Below, one piece after another: positions 1 to 12,919 of a stretch of DNA of 15,331 nt; within the stretch, counting starts at the first letter, position 1, and each line of letters begins with the position of its first letter. The DNA lies in the IMG/VR virus record IMGVR_UViG_2617270976_000002, positions 1-15,331 of that record, one strand, 5' to 3'. The stretch comes from a virus. Its lineage: Duplodnaviria; Heunggongvirae; Uroviricota; Caudoviricetes. A program made the translations under genes and the position numbers. The notes beneath the pieces were generated by a model. That model saw only the letters and a program-made list of their open reading frames with translations, was not told the origin of the DNA and made no database searches.

Positions 1-46
1 AGCAGAATAATAATGGTGCGTAATTAATTCTGCAATCTCATCCGTT

Positions 47-1096
47 TCAAACGATTAAATCCTGAACTTCCCTGACTGTCTGCTCAAAACGTCCGGTCTC
101 CAGTTCAACGCCAATCGCACGACGCCCGAGCGCCAGTGCCGCTTTTACCGTTGAACCTGAGCCCATAAAAAAATCTGCAACCAGGTCACCCGGACGACTG
201 CTTGCGCTGATTATCTGCTGCAGCATTTCTGCCGGTTTTTCGCACGGATGTTTCCCGGGATAGAACTGCACCGGTTTATGTGTCCACACATCCGTGTACG
301 GCACCTGCGCCGTCACACCAAAATACCGCCGCAGATGCTTATATTCACTCTGCAGCTCCACATACTGCCGGTTCAGTGACGTATACGTATCCACCAGCTG
401 GTGGTGGGGCTTTTCCAGTTCACCGCGCTGATGTTTCTCTTCTGCCACCCGGGCAAACAGCGACTGTAATTTCAGATAATCGCTTTCGTTCGGTAGCTGC
501 CACTGACTGGCACTGAACCAGTGCGACACCATGTTTTTCTTTCCTGTGGCATCTGCAATCTGTTTTGCCGTTATCCCCAGGGCCGCGCGCGCATCACGAA
601 AGTAAGAAATCAGCGGGGCCATCACATGCTGTTTCAGTGCCCTGCCCTTCGCCTCATACCCGGCATCTTTCGGGCGATACGGCCCCTGATAATGTTCCGC
701 GAACAGAATGCGCTCTGTGGCGGGGAAATATGCCCTCAGGCTTTCCTTGTTGCACCCGTTCCAGCGTCCGGACGGCTTCGCCCAGATAATATGGTTCAGC
801 ACACTGAAGCGTTCACGCATCATGATTTCAATGTCAGACGCCAGGCGATGGCCACAGAACAGGTAAAGACTTCCGGCAGGTTTCAGCACCCGCCAGAACT
901 GCGCCAGACACTGGTCCAGCCACTTCAGGTAATCATCGTCGCCCTTCCACTGGTTATCCCAGCCCTCAGGCTTCACTTTAAAGTACGGCGGGTCCGTGAC
1001 TATCAGGTCAACAGAATTTTCGGGTAACGACCGGATAAATTCCAGGCAGTCAGCGTTGATCAACTCACAACTGGATATTTTTACAGTGTTAAACAT
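47..1096 (-). CDS. DNA N6-adenine methyltransferase (beta-class amino-MTase)
   Basis: 349-aa ORF. Catalytic motif DPPY (…DLIVTDPPYFK…) lies near the N-terminus and the AdoMet-binding motif FxGxG (…DFFMGSGSTVKAA…) near the C-terminus, which is the beta-class order. DPPY rather than SPPY/F favours N6-adenine specificity (family knowledge). Confidence 0.85.
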   Translation of the reverse strand: MFNTVKISSCELINADCLEFIRSLPENSVDLIVTDPPYFKVKPEGWDNQWKGDDDYLKWLDQCLAQFWRVLKPAGSLYLFCGHRLASDIEIMMRERFSVLNHIIWAKPSGRWNGCNKESLRAYFPATERILFAEHYQGPYRPKDAGYEAKGRALKQHVMAPLISYFRDARAALGITAKQIADATGKKNMVSHWFSASQWQLPNESDYLKLQSLFARVAEEKHQRGELEKPHHQLVDTYTSLNRQYVELQSEYKHLRRYFGVTAQVPYTDVWTHKPVQFYPGKHPCEKPAEMLQQIISASSRPGDLVADFFMGSGSTVKAALALGRRAIGVELETGRFEQTVREVQDLIV

Positions 1097-1232
1097 GGAT
1101 CATTAAGCCTGTCTCTGATAGGCTCATTCTGCTTTTGCGCAAAGCAGATGGGCCTGAGGTTTGCTTGTGATCCGGACGCATGAGCAGATGGCTGGTGAGT
1201 GCCCCTAACACCCACCAGCCGCCCATTTACCA

Positions 1233-1261
1233 CAAATAAAAAAGCCTTCAGGACTGAAGGC
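1233..1261 (-). terminator. Rho-independent terminator downstream of the small winged-helix gene
   Basis: Minus strand reads GCCTTCA-GTCC-TGAAGGC followed by TTTTTTATTTG: 7-bp GC-rich stem, 4-nt loop, U-tract. It overlaps the last codons of the 1248..1445 CDS. Confidence 0.6.
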
Positions 1262-1445
1262 GTCTGTAACAACCGAACTGATAGTCTGCCAGACCCGCCA
1301 TAACCAGCTGGGTCAGTATTAACTGGCAGCGTTCGCGTGAAAGGTAAGTATTCTGCGCAATCTCCCTGACTGTCGCCGGGTCGGTAACGCTTAATTCATT
1401 AAACACCACTCTGGCGGTTTCTGTCATATCCTGCTGTTTTAGCAT
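1248..1445 (-). CDS. small winged-helix-like protein (about 66 aa), FaeA/PapI-like by composition
   Basis: ORF track gives 1248..1580, but its first 45 codons run across the terminator hairpin at 1569-1596. The internal ATG at 1443-1445 (MLKQQDMTETARVVF…) follows a purine-rich RBS-like stretch. Family resemblance is weak and from memory. Confidence 0.5.
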   Translation of the reverse strand: MLKQQDMTETARVVFNELSVTDPATVREIAQNTYLSRERCQLILTQLVMAGLADYQFGCYRRLQS

Positions 1446-1568
1446 GTCTTTTTCCCTTTTCCGGTTAACGTGACATACCAATAACTCTTGTCGAAAAAGC
1501 CAGCAAGCTGAAAGACCCGTATTCGCAACCACCAGCGCGTTTACTGTACTGACGCGATTTTCGGACAT

Positions 1569-1596
1569 AAAAAAAACCACCTGGCGGTGGTTTTTT
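1569..1596 (-). terminator. strong intrinsic terminator (bidirectional architecture), candidate tR'-like
   Basis: Plus strand AAAAAAAA-CCACC-TGGC-GGTGG-TTTTTT; on the minus strand the stem is followed by eight U. Sits about 60 nt downstream of the 231-aa ORF stop. Confidence 0.7.
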
Positions 1597-1599
1597 CTT

Positions 1600-1672
1600 A
1601 CTTTGCCATCACGTACAAAATCGGCAAAATATCAGATTTATACGAAACATACGCGATTTAATTGACTTTTGC
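1600..1672 (-). promoter_or_regulatory. candidate late-type promoter between the Q-like gene and the terminator
   Basis: Minus strand carries TTGCAA, 17 nt, TATGTT, and a separate TATAAA, all within about 70 nt upstream of the terminator. Hexamer matching only; position relative to a Q-like gene is the main support. Confidence 0.25.
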
Positions 1673-2353
1673 AATATCTCGTCGTGAAAAGGTCGCTTTT
1701 TGTTGCGCTCTTATTTTCACGGAGCAAATCAAGGATTCTCTATCGAGGCGCTTAAAAATATCGCACATCTCACGCCAGTAGTTCGCATAATTATGGCTCC
1801 AGTTATCAGGCTTAACTCCACACAGTCTGGCAAGCTCCTGTCTCTGGTAGACCTCACACCCGGTAACCCATCCTCTGACATCCTGTGCCGCCAGCCAGAT
1901 CAACTTCTTCACACGCTCCAGCGTTTTCACTGCAATTTTTCTGGAGCCGGACTGAGTTTTAAATTCACTCCACACCCACTGCGTTATCGCGATCTGATGC
2001 TCCCAGCAAATGTTTCCGCCATAACACCACAACAACCACGCCTTCTGATGTTCTTCCAGTTCCAGAACGGCACGCCGCCACGATGATGTTGCAAACTCAA
2101 CAGGACTGACCAGCGCAATTGATGAGCCTTTCGCCAGTGATTGTTTACCCTGGATCGGGGGATTATCCCGCGTGATCATTTTTCCGGTTACCTCATCGCG
2201 GTAACGAATTTTTTTGCGTCTGTAACGCCCTGTATCGAACAGGGCATTTTCCTGCCAGGCTTCCAGCTGGCATTTTGTCGACCCACTGAGATCTGCAGTG
2301 GCAATCATGAGTTGCTCACGAACAAACTGTAAATACTGGTTATTCATGCACAC
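1658..2353 (-). CDS. putative late-gene antiterminator Q-like protein (function uncertain)
   Basis: 231-aa ORF with GTG start. It lies directly downstream of the rusA-like gene, where Q sits in phage 82-type lambdoid phages, and is followed by a promoter-like stretch and a strong terminator. It has no lambda-Q zinc-finger motif, so the function is inferred from synteny only. Confidence 0.4.
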   Translation of the reverse strand: MCMNNQYLQFVREQLMIATADLSGSTKCQLEAWQENALFDTGRYRRKKIRYRDEVTGKMITRDNPPIQGKQSLAKGSSIALVSPVEFATSSWRRAVLELEEHQKAWLLWCYGGNICWEHQIAITQWVWSEFKTQSGSRKIAVKTLERVKKLIWLAAQDVRGWVTGCEVYQRQELARLCGVKPDNWSHNYANYWREMCDIFKRLDRESLICSVKIRAQQKATFSRRDIAKVN

Positions 2354-2621
2354 CCACCTCTGTAATTCTTATCTCCAGCCGTCCACCAGATACTGGCTGG
2401 CCACGTACAATATTGATTTCATCAAACTGCTCATCGTCCATTAACAACCCCGCGTGCGTCAGCGCATCCAGTGGTGCTTTCAGAATATTGTCCAGGTCAC
2501 GACGACGCTTATCCGGTGGCTCTGCAATAATTTTTATTGCCAGCCGTCCGGACAGGCTTAATTTCAGTCGCTGCTGGCGAACAATAAGCGCCACTGAGGG
2601 CTTTCCTAAACTCATATCCAC
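2340..2621 (-). CDS. rusA: RusA-family Holliday-junction resolvase, N-terminally short
   Basis: …AIKIIAEPPDKRRRDLDNILKAPLDALTHAGLLMDDEQFDEINIV…GGRLEIRITE matches the conserved core of E. coli RusA (…[40 protein letters not shown]…GGRLELTITE, recalled). The frame is closed by TGA just upstream of the GTG start, so roughly 30 residues of the usual N-terminus are not encoded. Confidence 0.7.
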   Translation of the reverse strand: MDMSLGKPSVALIVRQQRLKLSLSGRLAIKIIAEPPDKRRRDLDNILKAPLDALTHAGLLMDDEQFDEINIVRGQPVSGGRLEIRITEVGVHE

Positions 2622-2781
2622 GTCTGCGGTAGTTATGAATCAGCCATTCGGCCTGTTCTTCAGTACAGGGATCGTGCTGATACCAGTCATATTTGAATGC
2701 GTGAGAACGCCACCCGTGCCTGCTGGCAAAGGCAGAATCAGAATTGCGAAATTTGAAATTATGCGCCATTGTCATCTCCAA
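2509..2781 (-). CDS. hypothetical protein (90 aa) overlapping the rusA-like start in another frame
   Basis: TTG-start ORF whose 3' 110 nt overlap the rusA-like ORF out of frame. Its N-terminal half (MAHNFKFRNSDSAFASRHGWRSHAFKYDWYQHDPCTEEQAEWLIH) does not resemble a RusA N-terminus. Could be a real small gene or a frameshift remnant. Confidence 0.3.
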   Translation of the reverse strand: MEMTMAHNFKFRNSDSAFASRHGWRSHAFKYDWYQHDPCTEEQAEWLIHNYRRRGYEFRKALSGAYCSPAATEIKPVRTAGNKNYCRATG

Positions 2782-2828
2782 TGGCGCTGCAGGTTGCCAG
2801 TTGTTCAGGCTGGCTCACGTATTATAAC

Positions 2829-3002
2829 TTATTCCCGAACTACCTTGAAACCGAGTCTTTCCAAGTATTCAATGAATGCCTCAACAGATAACACTACATG
2901 ATCATCAGGAATTAACGCTGTGTAGGTAATACCCCCATTCTCAACGCGCACAGCATAGAGGCCATCTTCACTAAAAATTTCACGTAATTCTTCGATTTTC
3001 AT
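2829..3002 (-). CDS. small hypothetical protein (57 aa)
   Basis: Hand-translated, below the ORF-track length cutoff: MKIEELREIFSEDGLYAVRVENGGITYTALIPDDHVVLSVEAFIEYLERLGFKVVRE. A GGAAGGA RBS sits about 8 nt upstream of the ATG at 3000-3002. Confidence 0.45.
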   Translation of the reverse strand: MKIEELREIFSEDGLYAVRVENGGITYTALIPDDHVVLSVEAFIEYLERLGFKVVRE

Positions 3003-3124
3003 CTTCAGAATCCTTCCAGATAAATAGCTCTTCCCCTTCGGGGTCCATCCCTCTTCTCCCTGCGCGCTACTTAAGTATTTTTGATTCTATTCCGGCACCA
3101 TCTAAAACTTCAAACGCGTTGAAA

Positions 3125-3155
3125 ATAAAAACAAAAACCCGCCGAAGCGGGTTAA
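3125..3155 (-). terminator. intrinsic terminator downstream of hok
   Basis: Minus strand CCCGC-TTCG-GCGGG followed by TTTTTGTTTTTATTTT: 5-bp GC stem with a UUCG tetraloop and a U-tract. Confidence 0.6.
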
Positions 3156-3221
3156 GTGCGGGTGCGTTGAGGATGCCTGACACATCAGAGGTGGCGAGGG
3201 ATTTCTCCCCCGCCCGGTCTC

Positions 3222-3377
3222 TTACTCCTCAGGTTCGTAAGCTGTGAAGACAGCGACCTCCGTCTGGCCGGTTCGGATTCGTACCTCGCAGAGGTCTTTC
3301 CTCGTTACCAGTGCCGTCACTATGACGGTTAAACAGATGACGATCAGGGCGATTAGCATCGCCTTTTGCTGCTTCAT
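3222..3377 (-). CDS. hok: Hok/Gef-family membrane toxin (HokD/RelF-like, 51 aa)
   Basis: MKQQKAMLIALIVICLTVIVTALVTRKDLCEVRIRTGQTEVAVFTAYEPEE has the Hok signature: single transmembrane helix, then conserved RK.LCE..IR…EVA.F.AYE. Matches my recollection of E. coli HokD/RelF. An AAGGAG SD sits 9 nt upstream of this ATG. Confidence 0.85.
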   Translation of the reverse strand: MKQQKAMLIALIVICLTVIVTALVTRKDLCEVRIRTGQTEVAVFTAYEPEE

Positions 3378-3434
3378 AGCCTGCTTCTCCTTGCCTTTCG
3401 GCACGTAAGAGGCTAACCTACGTGTGTAGAGCAT
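3222..3434 (-). CDS. mok: Mok-like in-frame upstream extension of hok (70 aa)
   Basis: Upstream ATG at 3432-3434 opens MLYTRRLASYVPKGKEKQA in frame with hok. This resembles the N-terminus of MokC (MLNTCRVPLTDRKVKEKRA…, recalled), the reading frame that modulates Hok translation. Confidence 0.5.
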   Translation of the reverse strand: MLYTRRLASYVPKGKEKQAMKQQKAMLIALIVICLTVIVTALVTRKDLCEVRIRTGQTEVAVFTAYEPEE

Positions 3435-3668
3435 AGATATGGCCTCAGATTAATGTTAAGCGTCTTGCCGGACGCGTAATGTTAACTGGGGCTTTTCTCT
3501 ATCTGCCTTTTGGTGTTCATGCCTGAGACAGATAGCCTCAAGCACCCGCTGCAATTCTACTTAACTCTCCTTTTCCCGCAAACCGTTTTTATCCCCAGCG
3601 GCAAATCGAATACACCACCAGCGCCACCGCCATCGCAATTCCTACCGTTGTTAATGCTTCAGGCCAGG

Positions 3669-3974
3669 TCATCGTAAAATATCCTCCACGCTTATCAGTC
3701 CGTTCCGCTCCAGATAACTCATCGCCTTATCCGGTAATTTGCAGTCTGGCTTCGCTTTCCTCAGTTGCCAGGTTAACTGCTTTACCAGCATGGTTAACTC
3801 ATCGACCAGACGCTGATATCCCACTGGTTTGTATTCATGCAATTTACCGGCTGGCTCTGCTGCCAGCGATGCCAGCGCAATCCGTGCCAGTTCCATTTGT
3901 TCACCACGGGTAAGCCCGTTTTCAAGCGGGTTTTTAATGAACAATTCAATACGTTCTTTGGTAATAGTGGTCAT
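3669..3974 (-). CDS. hypothetical protein (101 aa)
   Basis: Six-frame ORF with ATG start, same orientation as neighbours and tightly packed; no recognisable motif. Confidence 0.6.
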   Translation of the reverse strand: MTTITKERIELFIKNPLENGLTRGEQMELARIALASLAAEPAGKLHEYKPVGYQRLVDELTMLVKQLTWQLRKAKPDCKLPDKAMSYLERNGLISVEDILR

Positions 3975-3984
3975 GTGTTACTCC

Positions 3985-4248
3985 TTAACCCGCAGTGCTT
4001 TCAACTGATGAGGGGAACAAAATCTTTTCATCAAACCCTGCATTCATATCATGGACAGCAACACACCAATCCATTGACGAACGATTATCAAGAGCCTCCA
4101 TGATTTCATCCATGCGGCGCAGGTCATACAGGTAAATGCTTTTATCGCCAATGGTGTAAAAACCAATTTTTTTCGGTGATGGACAGCGATCAAGAACGTC
4201 CTGTAATTCGCTCAACCATGCTTGTTCTTTTTTTGTCAAAGTTGCCAT
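3985..4248 (-). CDS. hypothetical protein (87 aa)
   Basis: ORF with ATG start preceded by AAGGAGAG. Its 5' junction sequence is duplicated at the next gene upstream. Confidence 0.6.
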   Translation of the reverse strand: MATLTKKEQAWLSELQDVLDRCPSPKKIGFYTIGDKSIYLYDLRRMDEIMEALDNRSSMDWCVAVHDMNAGFDEKILFPSSVESTAG

Positions 4249-4249
4249 A

Positions 4250-4741
4250 TCACTCTCCTTTGATGCGAATGCCAGTGGTACTCATTCTCCTGATTTCCCA
4301 GAGCACACGAGGAACACCACCGTTTCCGACCGGATCGCGTTTACTCCGCAGGGCGACGCTTGATTCCGCCCAGCTTTTTCTTGGAGGAAGCTCTTTCACA
4401 CGAACAAAACCAGCTGCGCGGAGAGATGCTCCTGATTCATCTGCCTGGGTGTACGTAATACAACGTTGATAACCCATAGCCTTTGCTGCCCGCCAGACAG
4501 CACCATAAAGCGCGCTGTTAGCGTTGCGTTCTCCTGTGGTACATGTGCGATTTACTTCAAGCGTTAATCCATCGTCCAAATGTCGTGCAACAGGTCTACC
4601 GGCTGTCGCCACACCTATCAATTCTCCGGCATCATTTCTCAGACCAATGCTGAATTTATGCCCCACCGGGGGTTTATTGTGTCGGTGATGTCTGGATATA
4701 AACGCCTTCGCAACACGAAGAGTAACCGGTGAAATTTGCAT
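4250..4741 (-). CDS. hypothetical protein (about 163 aa), possibly acetyltransferase-like
   Basis: ORF track gives 4250..4780. The ATG at 4739-4741 (MQISPVTLRVAKAF…) has a strong AAGGAGAG RBS and sits 2 nt after the upstream stop, so I prefer it. C-terminal half (…NANSALYGAVWRAAKAMGYQRCITYTQADESGASLRAAGF…) vaguely resembles a GNAT-type motif. Confidence 0.55.
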   Translation of the reverse strand: MQISPVTLRVAKAFISRHHRHNKPPVGHKFSIGLRNDAGELIGVATAGRPVARHLDDGLTLEVNRTCTTGERNANSALYGAVWRAAKAMGYQRCITYTQADESGASLRAAGFVRVKELPPRKSWAESSVALRSKRDPVGNGGVPRVLWEIRRMSTTGIRIKGE

Positions 4742-4743
4742 TC

Positions 4744-5103
4744 TCACTCTCCTTTGATGCCAATGTTTACAGACTGGCAAGCCTCTTTGAGCACCCAGTC
4801 AACAGCGTCTTTCCATGCTCCGGTTTCGACTGGCGGATTCTCACGCTTTACCTGTTCATAAAAGCGCACAGCTTTAACCAGTCCTTCTGATGTCACCGAA
4901 GCTGGCGGGGCCGTGAATAACGCCTGAATTTCATAGTTTGGTCTGTCGTTACAATCCTCTTTTGTCGGGACATATTTCCAGTCACCAACCCACTGCTTCC
5001 CCTGAAAGTCTGTAACGCCTTTTTTCACGTAGCGATATCGCCATGCCACTGGTTTTGCCTGCCCTGCCTTTTCATGCCCTTCCTGATAATTAATCTCGCT
5101 CAT
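4744..5103 (-). CDS. hypothetical protein (119 aa)
   Basis: ORF with ATG start. Ends …NIGIKGE*, the same C-terminal pentapeptide and stop context as the 4250..4741 gene. Confidence 0.6.
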   Translation of the reverse strand: MSEINYQEGHEKAGQAKPVAWRYRYVKKGVTDFQGKQWVGDWKYVPTKEDCNDRPNYEIQALFTAPPASVTSEGLVKAVRFYEQVKRENPPVETGAWKDAVDWVLKEACQSVNIGIKGE

Positions 5104-5104
5104 T

Positions 5105-5276
5105 CATCGCCCCACTCATCACAATATGCTTCGACCGGTGTTTTCCCTGCTTCATAATCATCACGCCATGCTTCAGCATCAGCGGCACTTCCACCGCGTA
5201 ACTCTGCATAATCCATTAACAGTTCATGCCATTCTTCAAAACTGGCGTTATATTTAGTTGAACCAAAATCAGCCAT
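5105..5276 (-). CDS. small acidic protein (57 aa)
   Basis: Hand-translated, below the ORF-track cutoff: MADFGSTKYNASFEEWHELLMDYAELRGGSAADAEAWRDDYEAGKTPVEAYCDEWGDE. Start overlaps the upstream gene's stop by 8 nt; stop abuts the next start. Confidence 0.45.
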
Positions 5277-5451
5277 TTTGTTCTTCCTCTTCGTCTTTTA
5301 TTTCGTGGTATGAGTAATTGCAGTAGTTAAAGAAAATATCTTTAGCTTCATCCTGTATTTCATCTGGTGTTGCATCATCATCCACTTCGAATTCATCCTC
5401 GAAATCTCCACCGGCTATTCCCGTTTCAATAATTATTTTGAATTTTCGCAT
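5269..5451 (-). CDS. small highly acidic protein (60 aa)
   Basis: MRKFKIIIETGIAGGDFEDEFEVDDDATPDEIQDEAKDIFFNYCNYSYHEIKDEEEEQNG: about one third of residues are D or E. Confidence 0.5.
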   Translation of the reverse strand: MRKFKIIIETGIAGGDFEDEFEVDDDATPDEIQDEAKDIFFNYCNYSYHEIKDEEEEQNG

Positions 5452-5579
5452 TTCACTACCGCCCTTTCGGACGGCCTCCTGATGTTCTGAGGGTGCAGGA
5501 ATCCCTCCGGTTAAGGATTTAATAAAAATCGTTTCTGATTTAAATCTTCAGTATTTAGTTGTTAGTCGGTTTATAGCCT

Positions 5580-5891
5580 TTATGCTTCGGCCTTATTTCT
5601 CAGCCATACACAAACCGGGCCATCTTCGGTGTCATGTATTGAACCAATAAACCATCCATTGCCCTCTGGTCGTTCCGGTTCCCATGCAGAAATATCAGCA
5701 TCACACGCATCAAGGTCAGCACATCCTTCATCTCTGAAGCAGAGGACGTATTGAAGATTATTTTCCTCCATCCAGGCGTTAAACTCTTCCGTTGAAATAT
5801 ATTCCCGACCGTCACAGAATTTTTCATATTCAGGATGCGTCCAGTAGCCATATTCATCACGTACTACTGGTATTTCTTTAATTTCATTCAT
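5580..5891 (-). CDS. hypothetical protein (103 aa)
   Basis: ATG-start ORF whose start overlaps the upstream stop by 8 nt. Acidic and Trp-rich. The alternative frame 5600..5860 looks like a shadow. Confidence 0.6.
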   Translation of the reverse strand: MNEIKEIPVVRDEYGYWTHPEYEKFCDGREYISTEEFNAWMEENNLQYVLCFRDEGCADLDACDADISAWEPERPEGNGWFIGSIHDTEDGPVCVWLRNKAEA

Positions 5892-6138
5892 TTCTGTTCT
5901 CCCACGTTTTCAGACTTTCACCACAGAACGGACAAAATGAAACCCGAACTGGTAATTTAGAAAATTCACCGGAACGCAACATCACAAAATCAGGACCGCG
6001 AGTTAAACTCTCATTCCAGATTTTGTATATCAGCAGACCTTTTCGCATCGTGTATTCAGCATCACGCTCAAGGGACTTTGCCAGTGCTGCACATGGTTCT
6101 ATCTTGTTGCCATTAACCTGGCATTTTGATTCACTCAC
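5884..6138 (-). CDS. small zinc-ribbon-like protein (84 aa)
   Basis: Cys at both ends (…SKCQVNGNKIEPCAAL… and …SFCPFCGES…), i.e. CxxC-type pairs. Start overlaps the upstream stop (ATGA). Confidence 0.6.
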   Translation of the reverse strand: MSESKCQVNGNKIEPCAALAKSLERDAEYTMRKGLLIYKIWNESLTRGPDFVMLRSGEFSKLPVRVSFCPFCGESLKTWENRNE

Positions 6139-6563
6139 CGCACCACCTCCTCAAAATTCCCCTGATAAAACGCCAGTACACGCTGCATAGCTTCACTCTT
6201 CCGGCACTCGCGACAGATTATGTTTAGGCGCCTGTCGTAGCGGCGTATTTCGCCGTCTGGTAATAGCCAGATAAGGTCCGGATCAACCACAGATGGTTTC
6301 TTCAGCTTTGCCCTTGAGAGTTTTTTGCGGGCGTTTTGCCAGTCCTTGCGCGCCTGCTCAGACGGGAATACTCCGTAACCGGAATTGTAAACATCACCAC
6401 TGGCGGCCAGCTCCATGCATAAACGACCGACAGACGCATGACTGACACCAATTTCATCCGATAACTGCCGAATCGTGCCTCGTCCGTTAAGGCGTACGAA
6501 TTCCACGATCAGCCCCTTAATTTTTTCCCGCTCTTCTGGTGTAAATGCTCTTGTCATAAGCAC
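6135..6563 (-). CDS. HTH/winged-helix DNA-binding protein (142 aa)
   Basis: …GRGTIRQLSDEIGVSHASVGRLCMELAASGDV… has a helix-turn-helix pattern; basic C-terminal region. Confidence 0.6.
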   Translation of the reverse strand: MLMTRAFTPEEREKIKGLIVEFVRLNGRGTIRQLSDEIGVSHASVGRLCMELAASGDVYNSGYGVFPSEQARKDWQNARKKLSRAKLKKPSVVDPDLIWLLPDGEIRRYDRRLNIICRECRKSEAMQRVLAFYQGNFEEVVR

Positions 6564-6572
6564 CTCCGGAGA

Positions 6573-7316
6573 TCACTTTGTTGTCGGTGAATGAACCGGA
6601 ATATCAGCAATCGAACTGAAAATATCCCGGTGTTTATTCAGCTCCCGCAGCGCGGCGCAGACTCGCTCCCACTTCTGAACCTGACCTTTTGCCCGGCGCA
6701 GCTCACGGTTAGCCACATGCAGCGATGGTAAAATCAGACCATCCGGATGTTTTCTGGTGAACGACGGCTGTGACTGCACTGTGACCGCCACACTTTCCGT
6801 TTTTATTTCTTCCTGTGTTTCTGCTTCCCGAACTGGTAACGCAACACCTGCTGGCTGAGGAAAGGCTTTACCATCGGTTTCCGCTACGGATGCAGCTTCC
6901 GGCTCTGCCGGTAAATCAGCGCCCGGTATGCAGTAACGAAATTTACCGCCCTGATTCACGCGAATCAGACGCCCTTTGCTGATTGCCATGGCCAGCGATG
7001 AATTCGCCCGGCGGGAGGTAATCCCGAACATCAGTGCCAGCTCATCCGCCGTTTGTGGGCCATGTTGTTCAATCGCCTCAGTCAGCATTTGCGCTGTCAC
7101 TTTCGGTACCGGTGACACCGGTTCACTTTCACCAGCCTGAATCAGCCACCACATCGAACCCTTGTTATCCGCTTCACCGCGGCGCTTCAGTTTCCACAGT
7201 TCGTTGACCGCATCTTTACGGCTGATTCCAAGGCGGGCCGCCACTACCTGTGAAGAGGCTCTTTTCAGTGCTTTCAGTGCGTCAAATACGGTTTCCATTA
7301 AAATTTCCTCCGACAA
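6573..7316 (-). CDS. two-domain winged-helix protein (247 aa)
   Basis: Two HTH-like segments (…[26 protein letters not shown]… and …[30 protein letters not shown]…) separated by a Pro/Ala/Glu-rich linker. Lies immediately downstream of the P-like gene. Confidence 0.6.
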
Positions 7317-7331
7317 AATCGTTTCTCAGAT

Positions 7332-7997
7332 TCAAATAAAACCAGCTGCCTTCCGGCGTTCGTATTCCTGTTTCAGCCGTTCAATTGGCGTTGGCCCTTG
7401 CGGGTGTTTCGCCCCTTCCAGTTGTCGTCGCACTGGCGGAACACTCATCCCGTTACCAACATGCTTTGCCCATTTCGTCAGTTGCCGTTCTGCAAGTCGT
7501 TTTAACTCACCCTGCGTCATCTGGCGCTCAATCCCTCTGGTACGCATTTCGAGGCAGATGTGGTACAGCACAGGCTGTGGCCACGGGTATTTATCACTCC
7601 CGTCGTATCGCCAGGATTCATTGCGCCAGCGCCGGTACTCTTCCATCACTGCATCCACCGTAAGACCAAATGGATTTGCCCCACTCTCCGAAATCAGTGC
7701 AACAAACTCAGCCAGGTCCGGGGGCCACGTTTCACCCGCCCGGCAGCGGTCCATGCACTGACGGCAGACCAGCCGGATTTGCTGTTCAGTCATCGCGCCA
7801 ATCTGGGCAATCCAGAGCTTCGAAGGTGCGGCCCCGTTCTTCTGGGTCCAGCGGTTCGAATAAACCTCCCCCATGAGTTCCCACAGCTTCCAGACCGTTT
7901 CCGTCGCTGATAAATCCGTTTTCACGTTCCCACTGCTCACGTGCTGCCCGAATTTCCTGAACTGCCCGTGATGCGGTGCCACCTGGTGCTGCTGCAT
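7332..7997 (-). CDS. lambda-P-like replication protein (DnaB helicase loader); start uncertain
   Basis: …ETWPPDLAEFVALISE… and …YPWPQPVLYHICLEMRTRGIERQMTQGELKRLAERQLTKW… parallel lambda P (…PFLPSPGQFVAWCRE… and …YPWKSNAHYWLVTNLYQNMRANALTDAELRRKAADELVHM…, recalled). The longest ORF overlaps the O-like gene by about 210 nt; the true start is probably internal. Confidence 0.7.
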   Translation of the reverse strand: MQQHQVAPHHGQFRKFGQHVSSGNVKTDLSATETVWKLWELMGEVYSNRWTQKNGAAPSKLWIAQIGAMTEQQIRLVCRQCMDRCRAGETWPPDLAEFVALISESGANPFGLTVDAVMEEYRRWRNESWRYDGSDKYPWPQPVLYHICLEMRTRGIERQMTQGELKRLAERQLTKWAKHVGNGMSVPPVRRQLEGAKHPQGPTPIERLKQEYERRKAAGFI

Positions 7998-8832
7998 GGT
8001 TTACCCCCTTGCTGACTGGCTTAACCTGCGCCCTGACGTGATTTACGTGACGGGCGAATTTCTGCTCCCACTGAACCTGCGTGAAAACTTTCCCCTCCGC
8101 TGCCCAGTAGTCCCGGAAAGCGGCAAGTTCAGCAGGTGTAAATTCCGGCTCCGGCAAAGCCATCCCCCACAACGCAGCCCGTCGTCGAAAATCCGGCGAC
8201 GGATGCCAGTCATCGACCATCGGAAATTTCCCGATGGGTTCGCTCAGTCCATCCAGGGATGCAGGTTCTGCTGCCTGCAACGGCGTACCACTCGACTCAC
8301 TGGTCGGAGCACTCTCGCGCACGTGCGCGTTATGTGTGGGGTTTAATTCTTTATCTGTATCTTTATCTGTCGTGACTCGTCGTGACATGTCGTGACATAT
8401 GCGTGACTCGTCGTGACACCCCTCATTCTGTTTTCGTAATTTATCCCTCTCGCGCTGCGCTCTCTTGCGCTCTGCCGGGGATTTCGCGGTTTGTGAAACG
8501 TTGCCATTGTCCTCTTTCAGTACCTGGCGTTTTTCCCATCCGGTGATTAAATCTCCATCAAGTACCCGCCCCTGCATTGCCTGTAAAATTGAATCAATTA
8601 CTTCTTCCGTCACATCAAGCGCACTTGCTAAATCTTCCGTCGTGACATCAATGTGACCACGTAGTGACACGCCGTGACATGTCGTGACATTTCGTGACGC
8701 GTTCACCAGAAGGTGGATATACACCGCCATCACTGTTGCAATTGGCTGTCCTGACACCCTGGAAATTGTTCGCCACTTAGGATCATTTGGCATGTCATGC
8801 CATAACCTGAGCCAGGCATTAGCCATACTCAC
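7786..8832 (-). CDS. O-like replication initiator with DnaT-like C-terminal domain
   Basis: 348 aa. The C-terminal segment …IGKFPMVDDWHPSPDFRRRAALWGMALPEPEFTPAELAAFRDYWAAEGKVFTQVQWEQKFARH… closely parallels E. coli DnaT (…[62 protein letters not shown]…, recalled). Both iteron arrays lie inside this gene, and it sits directly upstream of the P-like gene. Confidence 0.8.
   Translation of the reverse strand: MSMANAWLRLWHDMPNDPKWRTISRVSGQPIATVMAVYIHLLVNASRNVTTCHGVSLRGHIDVTTEDLASALDVTEEVIDSILQAMQGRVLDGDLITGWEKRQVLKEDNGNVSQTAKSPAERKRAQRERDKLRKQNEGCHDESRICHDMSRRVTTDKDTDKELNPTHNAHVRESAPTSESSGTPLQAAEPASLDGLSEPIGKFPMVDDWHPSPDFRRRAALWGMALPEPEFTPAELAAFRDYWAAEGKVFTQVQWEQKFARHVNHVRAQVKPVSKGVNHAAAPGGTASRAVQEIRAAREQWERENGFISDGNGLEAVGTHGGGLFEPLDPEERGRTFEALDCPDWRDD
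8369..8417. repeat. iteron array A: five direct (G)TCGTGAC repeats at 10-11 bp phasing, next to an AT-rich tract
   Basis: CGTGAC at about 8371, 8381, 8391, 8402 and 8412. Preceded at 8341-8370 by an AT-rich tract containing a tandem CTTTATCTGT repeat. Located in the linker-coding middle of the O-like gene. Confidence 0.6.
8641..8698. repeat. iteron array B: six direct (C)GTGAC repeats at about 10 bp phasing
   Basis: GTGAC at about 8641, 8653, 8664, 8673, 8683 and 8693, plus one inverted copy (GTCAC) near 8612. Located in the N-terminal-domain coding part of the O-like gene. Confidence 0.55.
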
Positions 8833-8897
8833 CTCTTCTGATACCGAATCTTTTTACTCACGAATTACCGGAAGCGATCCGGTATGAATATTGTCAG

Positions 8898-9323
8898 TCA
8901 ATGCACAACCACAATATTTCCCGCCGGGCCACCACGATTCATCTGGTTGAAACCAGCGATCGCCACTGCGACAAAATCATCAGCGTCTCTCACCAGTCGT
9001 TCCCGCGTCTCCACCAGCTCCCGAAAATAAGCTGAACTGTGGCTGCGCATTCGGGCCACCAGCAGAGGCGGCATTGCTTTTTCGATCGCTGGTAACAACG
9101 CCTGAATTTTTTTAACCGCATCAGGAGTGTCTTTCTCCACCCAGCGGAAAATTTTCTGGGTATTGCGAGCCAGGGCTTCCGGATGGCTGTCGTCATATAA
9201 TTCCGGGAACGTCATACCAAGCTCAAAATAAGCCCGGGTTATTTCAGCTGCCGGAACTTTTTCACCGTCCGGATGCGCCCAGGCATTCATCGCCATGCGG
9301 ATGTGCTCATGCCTGATTTTCAT
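8898..9323 (-). CDS. YdaT-like protein (occupies the cII position)
   Basis: 141 aa. MKIRHEHI… start, internal …KKIQALLPAIEKAMPPLL… and C-terminal …VVVH resemble Rac prophage YdaT as I recall it. Start overlaps the Cro-like gene's end by 17 nt. Confidence 0.6.
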   Translation of the reverse strand: MKIRHEHIRMAMNAWAHPDGEKVPAAEITRAYFELGMTFPELYDDSHPEALARNTQKIFRWVEKDTPDAVKKIQALLPAIEKAMPPLLVARMRSHSSAYFRELVETRERLVRDADDFVAVAIAGFNQMNRGGPAGNIVVVH

Positions 9324-9582
9324 GAATCAACTCCGATGCATTTGGTGTGTTAGCCTTGAATCCAACAGGTAAGCCGTCGGTTGGATTCGGGTAAATATCA
9401 GGCCGGAGTTCATGAGGTGTAACCTCGAAATTCGTTACTTCAGCAACACGTAATGCTTTTTCAGGGCTGAATCTTTCATAGCCCCCCAGCACTCGACTTA
9501 CATGCACCTGAGATAAACCCGTTAGCTTCCCAAACTGTAGCTGGGTGATATGTTTCTCTTTTAAATAGTCTCTTAAGTTCAT
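9307..9582 (-). CDS. Cro-like HTH protein (YdaS-type)
   Basis: ORF track start is a TTG at 9588; I prefer the ATG at 9580-9582 (MNLRDYLKEKHITQLQFGKLTGLSQVHVSRV…), which has a GAAGG RBS. HTH near the N-terminus; …ELRPDIYPNP… resembles the ELRPDI motif of YdaS (recalled). Divergent from the repressor gene. Confidence 0.7.
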   Translation of the reverse strand: MNLRDYLKEKHITQLQFGKLTGLSQVHVSRVLGGYERFSPEKALRVAEVTNFEVTPHELRPDIYPNPTDGLPVGFKANTPNASELIHENQA

Positions 9583-9689
9583 AGCCAACCTTCTACGTTA
9601 TGCCCCGAGCAAATATTAGCCCCACTAATTTTAAAGATCAATAGCCAGGCTATCTTTGATAATATCGGTAAAACAAATAAACTCTATGT
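9583..9689. promoter_or_regulatory. immunity-region control region: divergent promoters with TAGCC-type operator half-sites
   Basis: Leftward promoter on the minus strand: TTGATC (9636-9641), 17 nt, TAATAT (9613-9618). Rightward extended -10 TGaTAATAT at about 9657-9665. Perfect palindrome ATAGCCAGGCTAT at 9641-9653, with related sites TTAGCCCCACTAA (9616-9628) and ATAGCCAACC (9581-9590). Confidence 0.5.
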
Positions 9690-10151
9690 ATGAAAAAAAC
9701 ACGCGAAGTGATTGCAACTCCAGCAGCGAGCAAGAATTTAAAAGCCGCATGGAATGCAAGAAAAAAAGAGCTGAAGCTGACTCAAGAGCTGGCGGCTGAG
9801 TTGTTGGGATTCGAATCTCAAGGCACCGTTAGCCAGTATCTGAACGGCAAGATACCGGTAAATACCGACGCTGCGCTAAAATTTGCGGCTCTGTTAAAGG
9901 TAAAACCAGAGGACATTCGAGAAGACCTTAAAGACTTAATGAATTATGTAAGATCATCAGATACTTATGATGATAGCTTTTCAGGCAAAGGATGGAGGCT
10001 GGTCAATGAAGAACAGGCAGAGTTACTTAACCTCTTCGAGATTCTACCTGCGTCAGAAAAAGCCAAACTCCTTAACCAGCTACGTGGACTAAACAAGCTC
10101 TACGAGGAAGCCTTCGAGAACATGCTGGCACTAAAGAAACGTAACCAGTAG
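9690..10151 (+). CDS. DicA-like prophage repressor (HTH_XRE, no S24 peptidase domain)
   Basis: 153 aa. HTH …LTQELAAELLGFESQGTVSQYLNG…; C-terminal …ELLNLFEILPASEKAKLLNQLRGLNKLYEEAFENMLALKKR parallels the DicA C-terminus (…ELLELFNALPESEQDTQLAEMRARVKNFNKLFEELLKARQR, recalled). No Ala-Gly/Ser-Lys autocleavage module is visible. Confidence 0.75.
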   Translation: MKKTREVIATPAASKNLKAAWNARKKELKLTQELAAELLGFESQGTVSQYLNGKIPVNTDAALKFAALLKVKPEDIREDLKDLMNYVRSSDTYDDSFSGKGWRLVNEEQAELLNLFEILPASEKAKLLNQLRGLNKLYEEAFENMLALKKRNQ

Positions 10152-10176
10152 CCACCGCTCACTACCCCATCCACAA

Positions 10177-10207
10177 CAAAAAAACCGACGTCTTAGTCGG
10201 TTTTTTT
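10177..10207 (+). terminator. intrinsic terminator after the repressor gene
   Basis: AAAAAAA-CCGAC-GTCTTA-GTCGG-TTTTTTT: symmetric A-tract, stem and U-tract, about 25 nt after the stop. Confidence 0.65.
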
Positions 10208-10304
10208 GTGCCATAACTTCTGCAAATCAGCTGTATAACTAATATTTTTCCCTTGAAAAAACATTTACATAGTTACCAAATCAAAAATATCATACGCCAT
10301 ACTG

Positions 10305-10333
10305 TTGACTTAAAATATCCGTGTTACTAATAT
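10305..10333 (+). promoter_or_regulatory. strong sigma70-type promoter for the ydfA-dicF-dicB operon
   Basis: TTGACT (10305-10310), 17-nt spacer, TAATAT (10328-10333). The first gene starts about 70 nt downstream. Confidence 0.5.
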
Positions 10334-10404
10334 TTCTATCAAGAACAACACGGCGCTGTAGGTTTTAGTTCCGCCACCCGGCGTTAAGGGGAAATGAGGT
10401 CAAC

Positions 10405-10557
10405 ATGGATATGCTCAATCTTGGCAACAACGAATCTCTGGTATGTGGTGTGTTCCCCAACCAGGACGGCACATTCACCGCGATGACGTATACCAAAAGT
10501 AAAACGTTTAAAACCGCAGCTGGCGCGCATCGCTGGTTAGCAAGAAACACTGACTGA
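10405..10557 (+). CDS. ydfA: YdfA-like small protein (50 aa)
   Basis: Hand-translated, below the ORF-track cutoff: MDMLNLGNNESLVCGVFPNQDGTFTAMTYTKSKTFKTAAGAHRWLARNTD, with GAGGT RBS. Size and position (first gene after the DicA-like repressor) match Qin ydfA. Replaces the antisense ORF 10365..10550. Confidence 0.55.
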   Translation: MDMLNLGNNESLVCGVFPNQDGTFTAMTYTKSKTFKTAAGAHRWLARNTD

Positions 10558-10568
10558 TGAGGTTGACG

Positions 10569-10907
10569 ATGGAATTTAAAGATTTACCTCCTTCAATCCA
10601 GGAGATTGCAGCACACACGCTTCGTCATCGTCTGAACGAACTTGAATTGGAATCGGTAACAAAAAAAGACACTGATAATATGGCTCGTAATGTGCGCGAT
10701 GCGTTTACTGGGCTGTTTTCAGATACAGCTTTAAATATCCATGGCACAGAGGATACAGCAAAACAATTTGCAGAAAAAGAAGTGGAAGATCCCAGTTCAA
10801 AGAGCCAGAAACAGCCAAACAACCATGAAATTAACGAACTGCTTCTGGCAACAGGCTTCATAAATATTAACGAATATGAACGCCGTAAAAAAATGTTATC
10901 TGATTAA
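10569..10907 (+). CDS. hypothetical protein (112 aa)
   Basis: ORF track gives a TTG start at 10557; the ATG at 10569 (MEFKDLPPSIQEIAAHTL…) is preferred. Acidic and Lys-rich; occupies the ydfB/ydfC position. Confidence 0.55.
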   Translation: MEFKDLPPSIQEIAAHTLRHRLNELELESVTKKDTDNMARNVRDAFTGLFSDTALNIHGTEDTAKQFAEKEVEDPSSKSQKQPNNHEINELLLATGFININEYERRKKMLSD

Positions 10908-11090
10908 TCCATCAAGATATCTTTTTAGCATCAGCGTTTCTACGTTATTAAAACCATCAGATTTTAACATAGCTTCGATTCGCTGATTTAAATTGCCAAC
11001 TAACTGTTGATACTGAGTAGATGGAAGCATGTGTACCAGCTCCTTGAGAACACAATAACATGCACCAAGTTTTAACTCCTGCTCTGACAT
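10896..11090 (-). CDS. small convergent ORF (64 aa) on the strand opposite the operon
   Basis: MSEQELKLGACYCVLKELVHMLPSTQYQQLVGNLNQRIEAMLKSDGFNNVETLMLKRYLDGLIR with GGAGGA 4 nt upstream. The plus strand is closed in all frames here. Tail-to-tail overlap of 12 nt with the 112-aa gene. Confidence 0.4.
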   Translation of the reverse strand: MSEQELKLGACYCVLKELVHMLPSTQYQQLVGNLNQRIEAMLKSDGFNNVETLMLKRYLDGLIR

Positions 11091-11429
11091 TTTATCCTCC
11101 ATTGAGGTTACTGGTTGAGAATGGAGACCTCTCGTGACAGCGTGTGGTCGTGCGCCGGACACGGATAAGAATCCGGCACTGACAGTTTACTGAAAGGATA
11201 TTTCCCTGAAAAGTCAGACCATAACGCGACAGCGCACGGCGAGGTAGCTGGTTCATAGATAGCCTGTCGTTAAATTTTCGTCGACCGTGCGCTTCCGGTT
11301 GTGGCAATCCGCGAAATGGCGCGGCGGTAAGTATGGCGGGGTTATTCCTTCCCCCGTTGAGGACACCGGGTTGTCAGGTTGACCATACGCTTAAGTGACA
11401 ACCCCGCTGCAACGCCCTCTGTTATCAAT

Positions 11430-11487
11430 TTTCTGGTGACTTTTGGCGGTATCAGTTTTACTCCGTGACTGCTCTGCCGCCCTTTTT
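11430..11487 (+). ncRNA. dicF: DicF small RNA (ftsZ-targeting sRNA of Qin-type prophages)
   Basis: TTTCTGGTGACTTTTGGCGGTATCAGTTTTACTCCGTGACTGCTCTGCCGCCC followed by TTTTT matches my recollection of the 53-nt E. coli DicF almost base for base. The 3' GGCGG…CCGCC stem plus U-tract forms its terminator. Confidence 0.8.
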
Positions 11488-11768
11488 AAAGTGAATTTTG
11501 TGATGCGGTGAATGCGGCTGAGCGCACGCGGAACAGTTAAAACCAAAAACAGTGTTATGGGTGGATTCTCTGTATCCGGCGTTAATTGTTAACTGGTTAA
11601 CGTCACCTGGAGGCACCAGGCACCGCATCAACAAAGTTCACTTCGGTGATGAAAGGTAAGAGAAAATGTTGAATGTAGCTATTGAAAACCAGAACGGGTG
11701 GAATTATAGTGCACCTGCACCTCATAAAACGGGTGCCGGGCGTGGAAACCCGAAATCATTCACGGCGC

Positions 11769-11795
11769 ATAACCGCGCTCAGGCGGTTTTTTTAT
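11769..11795 (+). terminator. intrinsic terminator or attenuator in the rha leader
   Basis: AACCGC-GCTCAG-GCGGTT followed by TTTTTTT, nested in a longer inverted repeat (GCGCATAA…TTATGCG). About 170 nt upstream of the rha start. Confidence 0.45.
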
Positions 11796-11962
11796 GCGTT
11801 AAGCACAGCCACATTCGCATTATGGTGGGGCGTGCAGGGCAGCCGCAAGGCTGGCCGGGTTCCGTGATGACCGGTATTTCCACCCCTGTACGTCTCACCA
11901 CCCTTATGGTCGTGGAAAACCTCGGTGGTGAGTTAATCAAATTCATCGCGGAGGCTGCCATC

Positions 11963-12520
11963 ATGGCTACTATCCTTACCCTTTCTCACCCTGACGTAAC
12001 CATCGAAAATGGTCGCGCTGTCACTACGTCTGTTGCGATCGCCGAGTTCTTTGGCAAACGCCACGAACGAGTGTTGGATAAAATTCGCAATCTGGACTGT
12101 TCAGCAAAATTCACTGAGCACAATTTTGTGTCGAGCGAATACACCGACTCAACCGGGCGCAAACTCCCAATGTACCAAATCACCAAAAACGGCTTCGTTT
12201 TCCTGGTGATGGGGTTCACAGGTAAAAAAGCCGCAACTTTCAAAGAAGCCTACATCGCTGAGTTCGATCGCATGGAGGAAGAACTGCGCCAGAATAACGC
12301 CCCGTCTCCCGACAAAATGATTCACGGGGACGGACGCACCCTGGTTATCCGTCTCGACGAACACGGCAATATCAAATTCACTGAAACCGTTCCTGACGGC
12401 GCAATGGTCTGCACCCTGGATACCTTCCGGTTTTATCTGGAGAAACAAGGATGGACTCTTGTAAACCGGAGCGCAATTAAAAATATGACTGTGGAGCAAT
12501 TGCTAAAAATTCATTGTTGA
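11963..12520 (+). CDS. rha: Rha-family phage regulatory protein
   Basis: ORF track gives 11666..12520. The ATG at 11963 (MATILTLSHPDVTIENGRAVTTSVAIAEFFGKRHERVLDKIRNL…) has a GGAGG RBS 8 nt upstream and puts the pRha-type domain at the N-terminus, as in this family. The upstream 99 codons are Gly/Arg/Pro/His-rich and span a terminator. Confidence 0.7.
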   Translation: MATILTLSHPDVTIENGRAVTTSVAIAEFFGKRHERVLDKIRNLDCSAKFTEHNFVSSEYTDSTGRKLPMYQITKNGFVFLVMGFTGKKAATFKEAYIAEFDRMEEELRQNNAPSPDKMIHGDGRTLVIRLDEHGNIKFTETVPDGAMVCTLDTFRFYLEKQGWTLVNRSAIKNMTVEQLLKIHC

Positions 12521-12530
12521 GGACGCGATA

Positions 12531-12719
12531 ATGGAAACGTCACTACCAAACGTTAATACGTCTGACGGGTGCTTTAATATTGGTGTTCTGCTCAGTAACA
12601 GGGATTTCACCGAGGATGCAATCAATATGAGAAAATATGAACCCTACCTGCTGAATGACAATTCCATACTCTCCAGAATTGCCCTTCTTAAACTCGGTAT
12701 TTTCGGAGAGTGGCGATGA
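12531..12719 (+). CDS. dicB: DicB-like cell-division inhibitor
   Basis: METSLPNVNTSDGCFNIGVLLSNRDFTEDAINMRK… parallels E. coli DicB (MKTLLPNVNTSEGCFEIGVTISNPVFTEDAINKRK…, recalled). 62 aa, GAGGA RBS, start 11 nt after the rha stop. Confidence 0.85.
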   Translation: METSLPNVNTSDGCFNIGVLLSNRDFTEDAINMRKYEPYLLNDNSILSRIALLKLGIFGEWR

Positions 12720-12919
12720 ACACATTATTCGTACTCATTCTGACTGTACATCTCAATACTGGTGAGTCGCTTGATGCAATCACCGGCATGTACAACTCAA
12801 TGAAAGAATGCATGGCTGCCGCAGCGGAACAGAAAATTCCCGGCAACTGTTATCCGGTCGATAAAGTTATTCACATGGACAATAACGAAATCCCGGCAGG
12901 ATTAAAAACAGCGCCGTAA
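12716..12919 (+). CDS. ydfD: YdfD-like small membrane protein
   Basis: MNTLFVLILTVHLNTGESLD…MKECMAAAAEQKIPGNCYPVDKVIHMDNNEIPAGL resembles Qin YdfD (recalled). Hydrophobic N-terminus; start overlaps the dicB stop. ORF track start is a GTG at 12710. Confidence 0.7.
   Translation: MNTLFVLILTVHLNTGESLDAITGMYNSMKECMAAAAEQKIPGNCYPVDKVIHMDNNEIPAGLKTAP

Follow-up and report, generated by a model that had tools for sequence, protein, structure and literature searches.

Do four small genes packed closely together ahead of a hok locus make up a single undescribed system, or have they merely come to lie side by side? The question was raised by a 15,331-nt stretch of viral DNA (Caudoviricetes; positions 1 to 15,331 of the IMG/VR record IMGVR_UViG_2617270976_000002), hereafter referred to as the window, in which a first-pass annotation had singled out the block at 3669-5103 as the most plausible place for such a system. 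The four-gene system hypothesis failed in the analysis described herein, and the useful result was the identity of the second gene, designated g2. The sequence data favor, by a modest degree, the reading that g2 encodes a stand-alone counter-restriction enzyme modifying nucleic acid, most probably DNA, and that the block is composed of mosaic accessory genes.

All four open reading frames (ORFs) of that annotation were recovered on the minus strand of the window, namely g1 (5103-4744, 119 residues), g2 (4741-4250, 163 residues counted from ATG), g3 (4248-3985, 87 residues), and g4 (3974-3669, 101 residues). The mechanically delimited ORF of g2 begins at a TTG codon at 4780; the ATG start adopted here agrees with the RefSeq annotation of an orthologous gene (492 nt) and with the N-termini of the homologs. 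The coupling of stops and starts was likewise borne out, as the ATG of g1 overlaps the stop codon of the upstream gene for a 58-residue protein (ATGA), the g1/g2, g2/g3, and g3/g4 spacers measure 2, 1, and 10 nt, respectively, and at each of these three spacers an AAGGAG-type ribosome-binding site is located within the end of the preceding gene. The four proteins all matched PHROG profiles with E-values from 1e-37 to 1e-50, and the ORFs are therefore genuine conserved phage genes rather than chance ORFs.

Family assignment and predicted fold of g2

The first-pass annotation had found no assignable motif in any of the four products, apart from a possible acetyltransferase-like segment at the C-terminus of the 163-residue one. 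While the former statement remained valid for g1, g3, and g4, whose scans against Pfam and NCBIfam returned no match, it did not hold for g2, which was assigned to the NCBIfam family XF1762_fam (NF045478) with an E-value of 5e-61 (204.7 bits against a cut-off of 50 bits; model positions 2-130 of 143) and to phrog_1384, labeled 'Mom-like DNA modification protein', with an E-value of 4e-42. RefSeq already names the orthologs of g2 as XF1762 family proteins. As for the acetyltransferase hint, it proved right with respect to the fold and too narrow with respect to the extent: the AlphaFold2 model of g2 (mean predicted local distance difference test score, pLDDT, of 85) adopted, over the whole protein and not just its C-terminal segment, the topology of the GCN5-related N-acetyltransferases (GNATs), beta1-alpha1-alpha2-beta2-beta3-beta4-alpha3-beta5-alpha4-beta6-beta7. 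The best structural match of this model in the PDB was, by two methods, the Mom protein of phage Mu (8bv8), with a structure-based identity of approximately 11%.

At the profile level, g2 matched the Pfam family Mom (PF25680) over profile positions 3-124 of 202 with an E-value of 1e-4 and 22.4 bits, below the gathering cut-off of 27.1 bits, and some other XF1762 members carry a precomputed PF25680 assignment. When 28 diverse XF1762 members (40-65% identical to g2) were scanned, 20 of them matched Pfam Mom at E<0.01 and none matched any other Pfam family. A search of the PDB sequences with the XF1762 profile missed Mom, and the relationship between the two is visible only by fold and by profile-profile comparison; the alignment obtained by the latter was weak (E-value of 6e-4, probability of 28%, 120 columns) and consistent across three runs.

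The residues of the Mom active site were then located in XF1762 through this alignment, with their conservation being judged across family members 40-65% identical. H58 and R111 of Mom correspond to H19 and R65, both of which are invariant in XF1762, whereas S124 corresponds to the nearly invariant S76, and D149/E150 to D101/E102, the latter of which is nearly invariant. It has been demonstrated that catalysis by Mom requires R111 and S124 (PMC13219725), and that conservation of R111 (previously numbered R101) extends to Mom homologs but not to GNATs at large (PMC7261163). In the motif A loop of g2, R72-N-A-N-S76-A, the glycines of the canonical Q/R-x-x-G-x-G/A are replaced, and this loop aligns with R120-N-S-E-S124-R of Mom; such a degenerate motif A alone does not exclude the binding of coenzyme A (CoA). 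In addition, g2 is a very basic protein, having an isoelectric point of 10.9 and a net charge of +14. Taken together, the model and the profiles predict g2 to be a stand-alone XF1762-family enzyme of the GNAT fold that belongs to a short, very basic sister branch of Mu Mom.

Distribution, neighborhoods, and fusions of the g2 family

The XF1762 family comprises 3,313 clusters at 50% identity; counted in one and the same database, it amounted to 5,663 clusters vs 843 for Mom proper. Sequence identity amounts to 55-85% between members from Enterobacteria, Betaproteobacteria, Clostridia, Mycobacterium, Streptomyces, Acidobacteria, Actinobacteria, and others, and homologs were present in 32 phage records representing at least ten host genera. 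Such a high degree of conservation in a mobile single gene suggests that the enzyme may act on universally conserved substrates.

DNA methyltransferase genes recurred around the g2 homologs. Directly upstream of the homolog we found an SNF2 gene and an N6/N4 methylase gene (L017), a C5 methylase gene (L020), or C5 and D12 methylase genes followed by DUF5131 (L018), while within approximately 1-2 kb there was a C5 methylase gene (L025) or a gene for a phage Dam-like plus phage GNAT-like protein (L022). In the Burkholderia phage phi1026b, there is an overlap between the homolog and the beginning of a gene for a DNA methyltransferase, and in a Mycobacterium abscessus prophage (prophi68-1) a methyltransferase gene lies two genes upstream. 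In longer family members, furthermore, the XF1762 domain is fused with a methyltransferase of the D12 N6-adenine type (P0269) or of the C5 type (P0308), with a PAPS-reductase domain (P0370), or with the polyvalent-protein domains LPD28 and YodL (P0343). Given these methyltransferase neighbors, the fusions, and the distribution taken together, a role in the modification of nucleic acid, most probably DNA, appears to be indicated for g2.

Separately, it was observed that the homologs in other phyla reside in small 'DNA-modification islands' (5503-6624 in L018; 1756-3108 in L022). DUF5131 belongs to the Mycobacterium island (L018), and the island of Thermodesulfobacteriota (L022) holds a two-domain protein of the phage Dam-like and phage GNAT-like types together with DUF1643.

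Proposed role of g2 and the alternatives

On the basis of these findings we infer the substrate, chemistry, donor, and biological role of g2 as follows. Upon induction or infection, g2 would be transcribed along with the early lytic genes, and its product would bind nucleic acid, most probably the replicating double-stranded DNA (dsDNA) of the phage, and transfer an acyl or aminoacyl group onto a nucleobase by means of a Mom-type active site with His19, Arg65, and Ser76. The donor could be an aminoacyl-tRNA, as in Mom, or an acyl-CoA. Phage DNA marked in this manner would escape restriction in the next host, and g2 would do the job of the DNA methyltransferases that adjoin its homologs or are fused to them.

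Several points weigh against this proposal. The alignment of XF1762 with Mom ends at beta6, and the helix-turn-helix (HTH)-like insertion of approximately 43 residues that Mom carries between beta6 and beta7 (Mom 175-209) is not present in g2. XF1762 has in its place a loop of 26 residues (119-144, pLDDT 53-66), within which W124, S127, S128, D136, P137, G139, G141, and G142 are conserved. Deletion of the insertion abolished the activity of Mom (PMC13219725), and because it is replaced in g2 by a loop modeled with low confidence, DNA binding in the manner of Mom is not assured. Three residues of the Mom active site also differ, since Y59 and Y159 of Mom correspond to R20 and L107, respectively, and R151 falls in a 4-residue segment that has no counterpart in XF1762. 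With the HTH insertion and these three residues missing, g2 cannot be filed as an ortholog of Mom, and N6-carbamoylmethyl-adenine is not necessarily what it makes, if it makes a product at all. Moreover, g2 belongs to the early genes, unlike mom, the expression of which is late and under tight control. The count of associated methyltransferases covers approximately 24 loci with no formal background comparison, and some of the fusion proteins are derived from gene calls on metagenomes and may be artefacts. A literature search for 'XF1762' returned no paper containing the name and no experiment on any family member; likewise, a search combining 'Mom-like' and 'prophage' returned nothing relevant. 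Lastly, for g1, g3, and g4 the proposal states only that they are independent accessory genes, with no mechanism attached.

The lack of Mom's DNA-binding insertion makes it a serious alternative, albeit of rather low probability in our estimate, that g2 is an active Mom-like GNAT whose substrate is RNA (tRNA or rRNA), a protein, or a small molecule, and which serves host takeover or another purpose. Besides the lack of an insertion that Mom needs (PMC13219725), the missing equivalents of R151 and Y159 and the early rather than late expression would suit such an enzyme, and, as stated by the authors of the same study, the substrates of GNATs are unpredictable from the fold alone. Arg65, the counterpart of an arginine conserved in Mom homologs but not in GNATs in general (PMC7261163), speaks against this alternative, as do the repeated adjacency and fusion to DNA methyltransferases and the fusion with polyvalent-protein domains. 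The strong positive charge of g2 is compatible with DNA, though with RNA too.

A second alternative, which we regard as quite improbable, takes g2 as a GNAT toxin akin to TacT, AtaT, and KacT, one that would arrest translation by acetylating aminoacyl-tRNA, with g3 as its antitoxin, the pair bringing about abortive infection or stabilization. The size and fold of g2 do resemble those of GNAT toxins, the small, acidic g3 comes immediately after g2 in 32 of the 57 viral contigs with close g2 copies, and tRNA binding is plausible given that Mom itself engages charged tRNA at the CCA end (PMC13219725). Nevertheless, the 28 family members described above matched no acetyltransferase or toxin family of Pfam but only Mom, and g2 had no PADLOC match. 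In the known GNAT toxin pairs an antitoxin gene of the DUF1778/ribbon-helix-helix (RHH) type is located upstream; such a gene is lacking here, and no DUF1778/RHH domain was found in g1 or g3. The distributions of the two genes also disagree, given that the homologs of g3 (143 clusters) are confined to Enterobacterales, whereas those of g2 form thousands of clusters across many phyla, where g3 does not accompany them, and that g3 is six times commoner than g2 in Escherichia coli. Finally, it is with DNA methyltransferases, and not with antitoxins, that g2 is neighbored or fused. The assignment of g2/g3 as a toxin-antitoxin pair was thus rejected on the grounds of distribution and family.

Returning to the reading of g2 as a DNA-modifying enzyme, Mom was recently shown to define a new class of enzymes, that is, GNATs using a charged tRNA to hypermodify DNA (PMC13219725). 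XF1762 was the closest structural relative of Mom found here; it is several times more abundant than Mom proper in sequence databases, occurs in many phyla, and retains the essential Arg and Ser. A bolder extension, which we put forward tentatively and hold to be possible rather than probable, would regard XF1762 as a second Mom-like branch of GNATs, larger than Mom itself, that installs a not-yet-described DNA base modification as a single small enzyme, possibly via charged tRNA and without the HTH insertion. If this were true, thousands of temperate phages in many phyla, including the present E. coli prophage, would carry an unrecognized epigenetic anti-restriction mark. If XF1762 modifies DNA, a widespread single-gene mechanism of counter-restriction would be added to those known, and it might reveal a new DNA modification of use in epigenetic sequencing and phage engineering; if it does not, the family would show what small changes redirect a Mom-type active site. 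The family has already been named in NCBIfam, PHROGs, and Pfam, and it became interpretable once the mechanism of Mom was published. As a single gene of 492 bp in E. coli, g2 also constitutes a cheap experimental target.

Independent assortment of the four genes

To what extent do the four genes occur together? In the 5,426 complete E. coli genomes sampled, g2 was present in 154 and g3 in 979, while g1 was found at 80% or more of its length in 759 and in any part in 2,179. As for g4, the best matches in these genomes covered it only as two pieces, located over two adjacent genes. The region 3400-5500 was present at 80% or more in just 26 of the genomes, and other genes occupy the slot of g2 in relatives: in two otherwise collinear prophages, the slot between g1 and g3 is filled by a gene for a 146-residue 'Ea22' protein (L001) or by DUF4014 together with a gene for a 71-residue protein (L004). 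These observations upheld the description of the locus as a variable accessory hotspot.

A similar picture was obtained with the 56 IMG/VR contigs carrying a copy of g2 at 90% identity or higher. Its flanks consisted of full-length g1 plus g3 in 11, of a C-terminal fragment of g1 plus g3 in 28, and of neither in 20; as counted over 57 viral contigs, the C-terminus of g1 lay directly upstream of the close g2 copies in 32, and full-length g1 in only 11. In addition, g3 was found beside cassettes other than g2. Neither g1 nor g3 was adjacent to the g2 homolog in any of 24 genome loci from other genera and phyla, and a weakly g4-like gene (39% identity) lay directly downstream in one of these (L006). 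On E. coli plasmids, which are possibly phage-plasmids, g2 was located in 20 places and g3 in 90, including the hits H77 and H85 on plasmids of 99.6 kb and 88 kb, respectively; the cassettes thus circulate beyond the chromosomal lambdoid prophages. The exact four-gene arrangement was encountered in two contigs only (L107 and L108).

Presence and absence across the relatives thus separated the genes rather than joining them: the four are independently assorting accessory genes and not a multi-gene system. That they form one undescribed defense or superinfection-exclusion system carried as prophage cargo, as the first-pass annotation had supposed, retains very little probability in our estimate. 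The supposition drew on the tight packing and translational coupling of the genes, on their position in a variable hotspot adjoining a hok/sok toxin-antitoxin locus, and on the fact that three of them have no known function. The coupling, however, is the norm for the whole run of approximately 12 genes to which they belong, and the scan of the g1-g4 proteins against PADLOC-DB 2.0 found no family at E<=1. The single system is further contradicted by the unequal prevalences given above, by the occurrence of g2 without the other three genes in nearly all other taxa and with neither flanking gene in 20 of the 56 close contigs, by the association of g3 with other cassettes, and by the recent, lineage-specific origin of g4 described below.

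Accessory genes g1, g3, and g4

Profile searches gave no function for the other three proteins. The g1 protein is neutral and matched phrog_660 at positions 34-143 of 193 with an E-value of 1.9e-45, and in many phages the g2 cassette is accompanied by the 47-60 residues at the C-terminus of g1. The g3 protein is a small acidic protein of phrog_1714, for which the predicted fold was confident and had no solved relative. Sequence searches of the PDB with g1, g3 (as a profile), and g4 gave chance-level matches only, and neither g1 nor g4 had a match in PADLOC. Partial relatives of g1 and g4 are labeled 'Ead/Ea22-like' or 'EaA' in RefSeq and GenBank; such labels denote a class of small, early accessory proteins known from lambda and P22.

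The g4 protein is a chimera, of which the N-terminal part of approximately 40 residues derives from a gene for an 'EaA'-like protein of 55 residues and the C-terminal part of approximately 60 residues from the neighboring gene for a protein of 114 residues. Aligning 3601-4010 of the window with 4201-4815 of the related prophage L002 revealed that the two parts were fused in frame through the loss of 203 bp between two similar segments of approximately 25 nt, the repeat at both ends of the deletion being GGCT(G/C)TGCT(G/T)CCAGCGAT(A/G)CCAG. The PHROG matches are split accordingly, with phrog_60 and phrog_3323 on the N-terminal side and positions 145-193 of phrog_660 on the C-terminal side. Of 80 viral contigs, only two (L107 and L108) had g4 in contiguous form. 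As judged from these alignments, g4 is a recent deletion chimera specific to this lineage.

It was also observed that phrog_660 is divided between two genes of the block, positions 34-143 being covered by g1 (4744-5103) and positions 145-193 by the last 49 residues of g4 (3669-3830). One ancestral type of protein seems to have been the source of both modules, which are today 1.1 kb apart. When all retrieved loci were searched for one contiguous protein uniting the g1 body and the g4 C-terminus, only spurious read-through alignments were obtained; this speaks neither for nor against an insertion of g2-g3 into an ancestral gene of phrog_660, and the PHROG profile may itself derive from mosaic proteins. 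All in all, g1, g3, and g4 are independent accessory proteins, possibly directed against host defenses, with no demonstrable functional link to g2.

Cassette junctions

The way in which such cassettes may be exchanged was suggested by the borders of g2. This gene is bracketed by an imperfect direct repeat of 37 nt (family D1), the two copies of which are 84% identical and spaced by 494 nt, approximately the length of g2 plus one junction. In the upstream copy (4729-4765), the ...I-K-G-E-stop end of g1 is combined with the ribosome-binding site of g2, and in the downstream copy (4235-4271), the ...I-K-G-E-stop end of g2 is combined with that of g3. The core of the repeat, ATCAAAGGAGAGTGA on the coding strand, was counted twice in exact form in the window, the expected number being 0.04, and the junction, either exact or with one to two mismatches, bounds other cassettes in the related prophages L001-L004. 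Short conserved boundary sequences have been proposed as a route to lambdoid mosaicism (summarized in PMC3029335), and the junction pattern of g2 fits this route. Genes would be swapped as cassettes by recombination both at short conserved junctions comprising gene ends and ribosome-binding sites and within shared coding motifs, and g4 arose by a process of this type as well. The region overall represents ordinary lambdoid mosaicism, and a family name or number already exists for each of its genes.

Prophage context and expression

The minus strand of the window carries the early-right operon of a Rac/Qin-like lambdoid prophage, in which all four genes are located. A cI-like repressor is encoded on the plus strand (9690-10151), and on the minus strand follow the genes for a Cro/YdaS-like protein (9588-9307), a YdaT/cII-like protein (9323-8898), an O-like protein with a DnaT DNA-binding domain (8832-7786), and a lambda-P-like protein (7997-7332). 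The block had been delimited as lying between the replication genes and hok; this proved too simple, as six further genes (DUF1627, DUF977, genes for proteins of 84 and 103 residues, DUF7167, and the gene for the 58-residue protein) separate the P-like gene from g1. From the P-like gene to hok there extends a run of approximately 12 small, coupled accessory genes, of which g1-g4 make up the distal third, and the block is thus not a natural unit. Downstream of it are, in order, hok/mok with sok, a gene for a 57-residue protein, RusA, the antiterminator Q gene, and an N6/N4 DNA methylase gene.

Motifs resembling promoters and terminators were counted inside the block at the level of shuffled sequence, with no excess, and no Rfam family was found within 3669-5103. 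A reading of the block as a 'moron', a unit with a promoter or terminator of its own, was rejected on account of the motif counts matching those of shuffled sequence. The block is most simply read as a part of the repressor-controlled early lytic transcript. Since the genes lie in this operon and show no excess of signals of their own, counter-defense of the phage during lytic growth fits better than defense or exclusion expressed in the lysogen; the classification of the block as defense or exclusion cargo, and with it the single-system hypothesis, is thereby weakened.

Several features of the surrounding genes were recorded in addition. The mechanically delimited ORFs of the O-like (8832-7786) and P-like (7997-7332) proteins share 212 nt (7786-7997, minus strand), and the Pfam match of the latter starts at residue 59, so that the true start of P is probably located further downstream. 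Directly downstream of g4 there is a complete type I toxin-antitoxin locus, hok/mok/sok (3222-3547, minus strand), with a Hok_Gef domain (E-value of 3e-23) in the 70-residue Mok/Hok ORF, an Rfam sok match of 117 bits at 3372-3547, and a terminator-like hairpin at 3153-3136. The RusA ORF (2340-2621, minus strand) is short, comprising 93 residues from a GTG start and matching only positions 32-124 of the Pfam RusA profile, and its 5' end is overlapped by an ORF for 90 residues (2509-2781, minus strand); RusA may be truncated at the N-terminus or affected by a rearrangement, and L107 and L108 carry it in this form too. The N6/N4 DNA methylase of 349 residues (47-1096, minus strand; Pfam E-value of 2e-44), encoded shortly downstream of antiterminator Q, is likely an orphan methyltransferase expressed late, which along with the Mom-like g2 would give the prophage two candidate DNA-marking enzymes. 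In the immunity-left region, Rfam matches revealed a row of small RNAs on the plus strand (11431-11905), that is, DicF (11431-11482), isrK (11717-11793), and the C4 antisense RNA (11818-11905), an arrangement typical for dicB-type operons of the Qin/Rac-like kind.

Comparison with known systems

The lambdoid 'ea'/'nin'-type regions are a close counterpart of the block as a whole. As in those regions, small coupled genes of an early operon, having no known function, are present or absent module by module among relatives, and conserved junctions of 15-37 nt bracket the cassettes here. The 'ea'-type genes of lambda and P22 are carried in the early-left operon, whereas the present genes form part of the early-right operon, with the replication genes on one side and hok on the other. 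The GNAT toxin pairs (TacT/TacA, AtaT/AtaR, and KacT/KacA) resemble g2/g3 in placing a GNAT of approximately 160-175 residues beside a protein of approximately 90 residues, and the wider Mom clade, like these toxins, is linked to charged tRNA. The pairs differ from g2/g3 in that the gene order is opposite, and g2/g3 have no family match, no DUF1778/RHH domain, and no conserved partner.

Within the XF1762 family (NF045478/PHROG 1384), g2 is a full-length, high-scoring member with nothing structurally different from the others. Among characterized enzymes, Mu Mom (PF25680; 8bv8), a GNAT dependent on Gly-tRNA(Gly) that converts adenine in dsDNA to N6-carbamoylmethyl-adenine for the evasion of restriction, offers the nearest comparison. 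Both are basic proteins encoded by a single phage-borne gene, their motif A loops are degenerate in the same way (R-N-x-x-S), and the two essential residues together with the Mom-specific Arg are kept in g2. On the other hand, Mom consists of 241 residues as compared with 163 in g2, and mom is a late gene under the control of Com, whereas g2 is placed in an early operon without a Com-like regulator.

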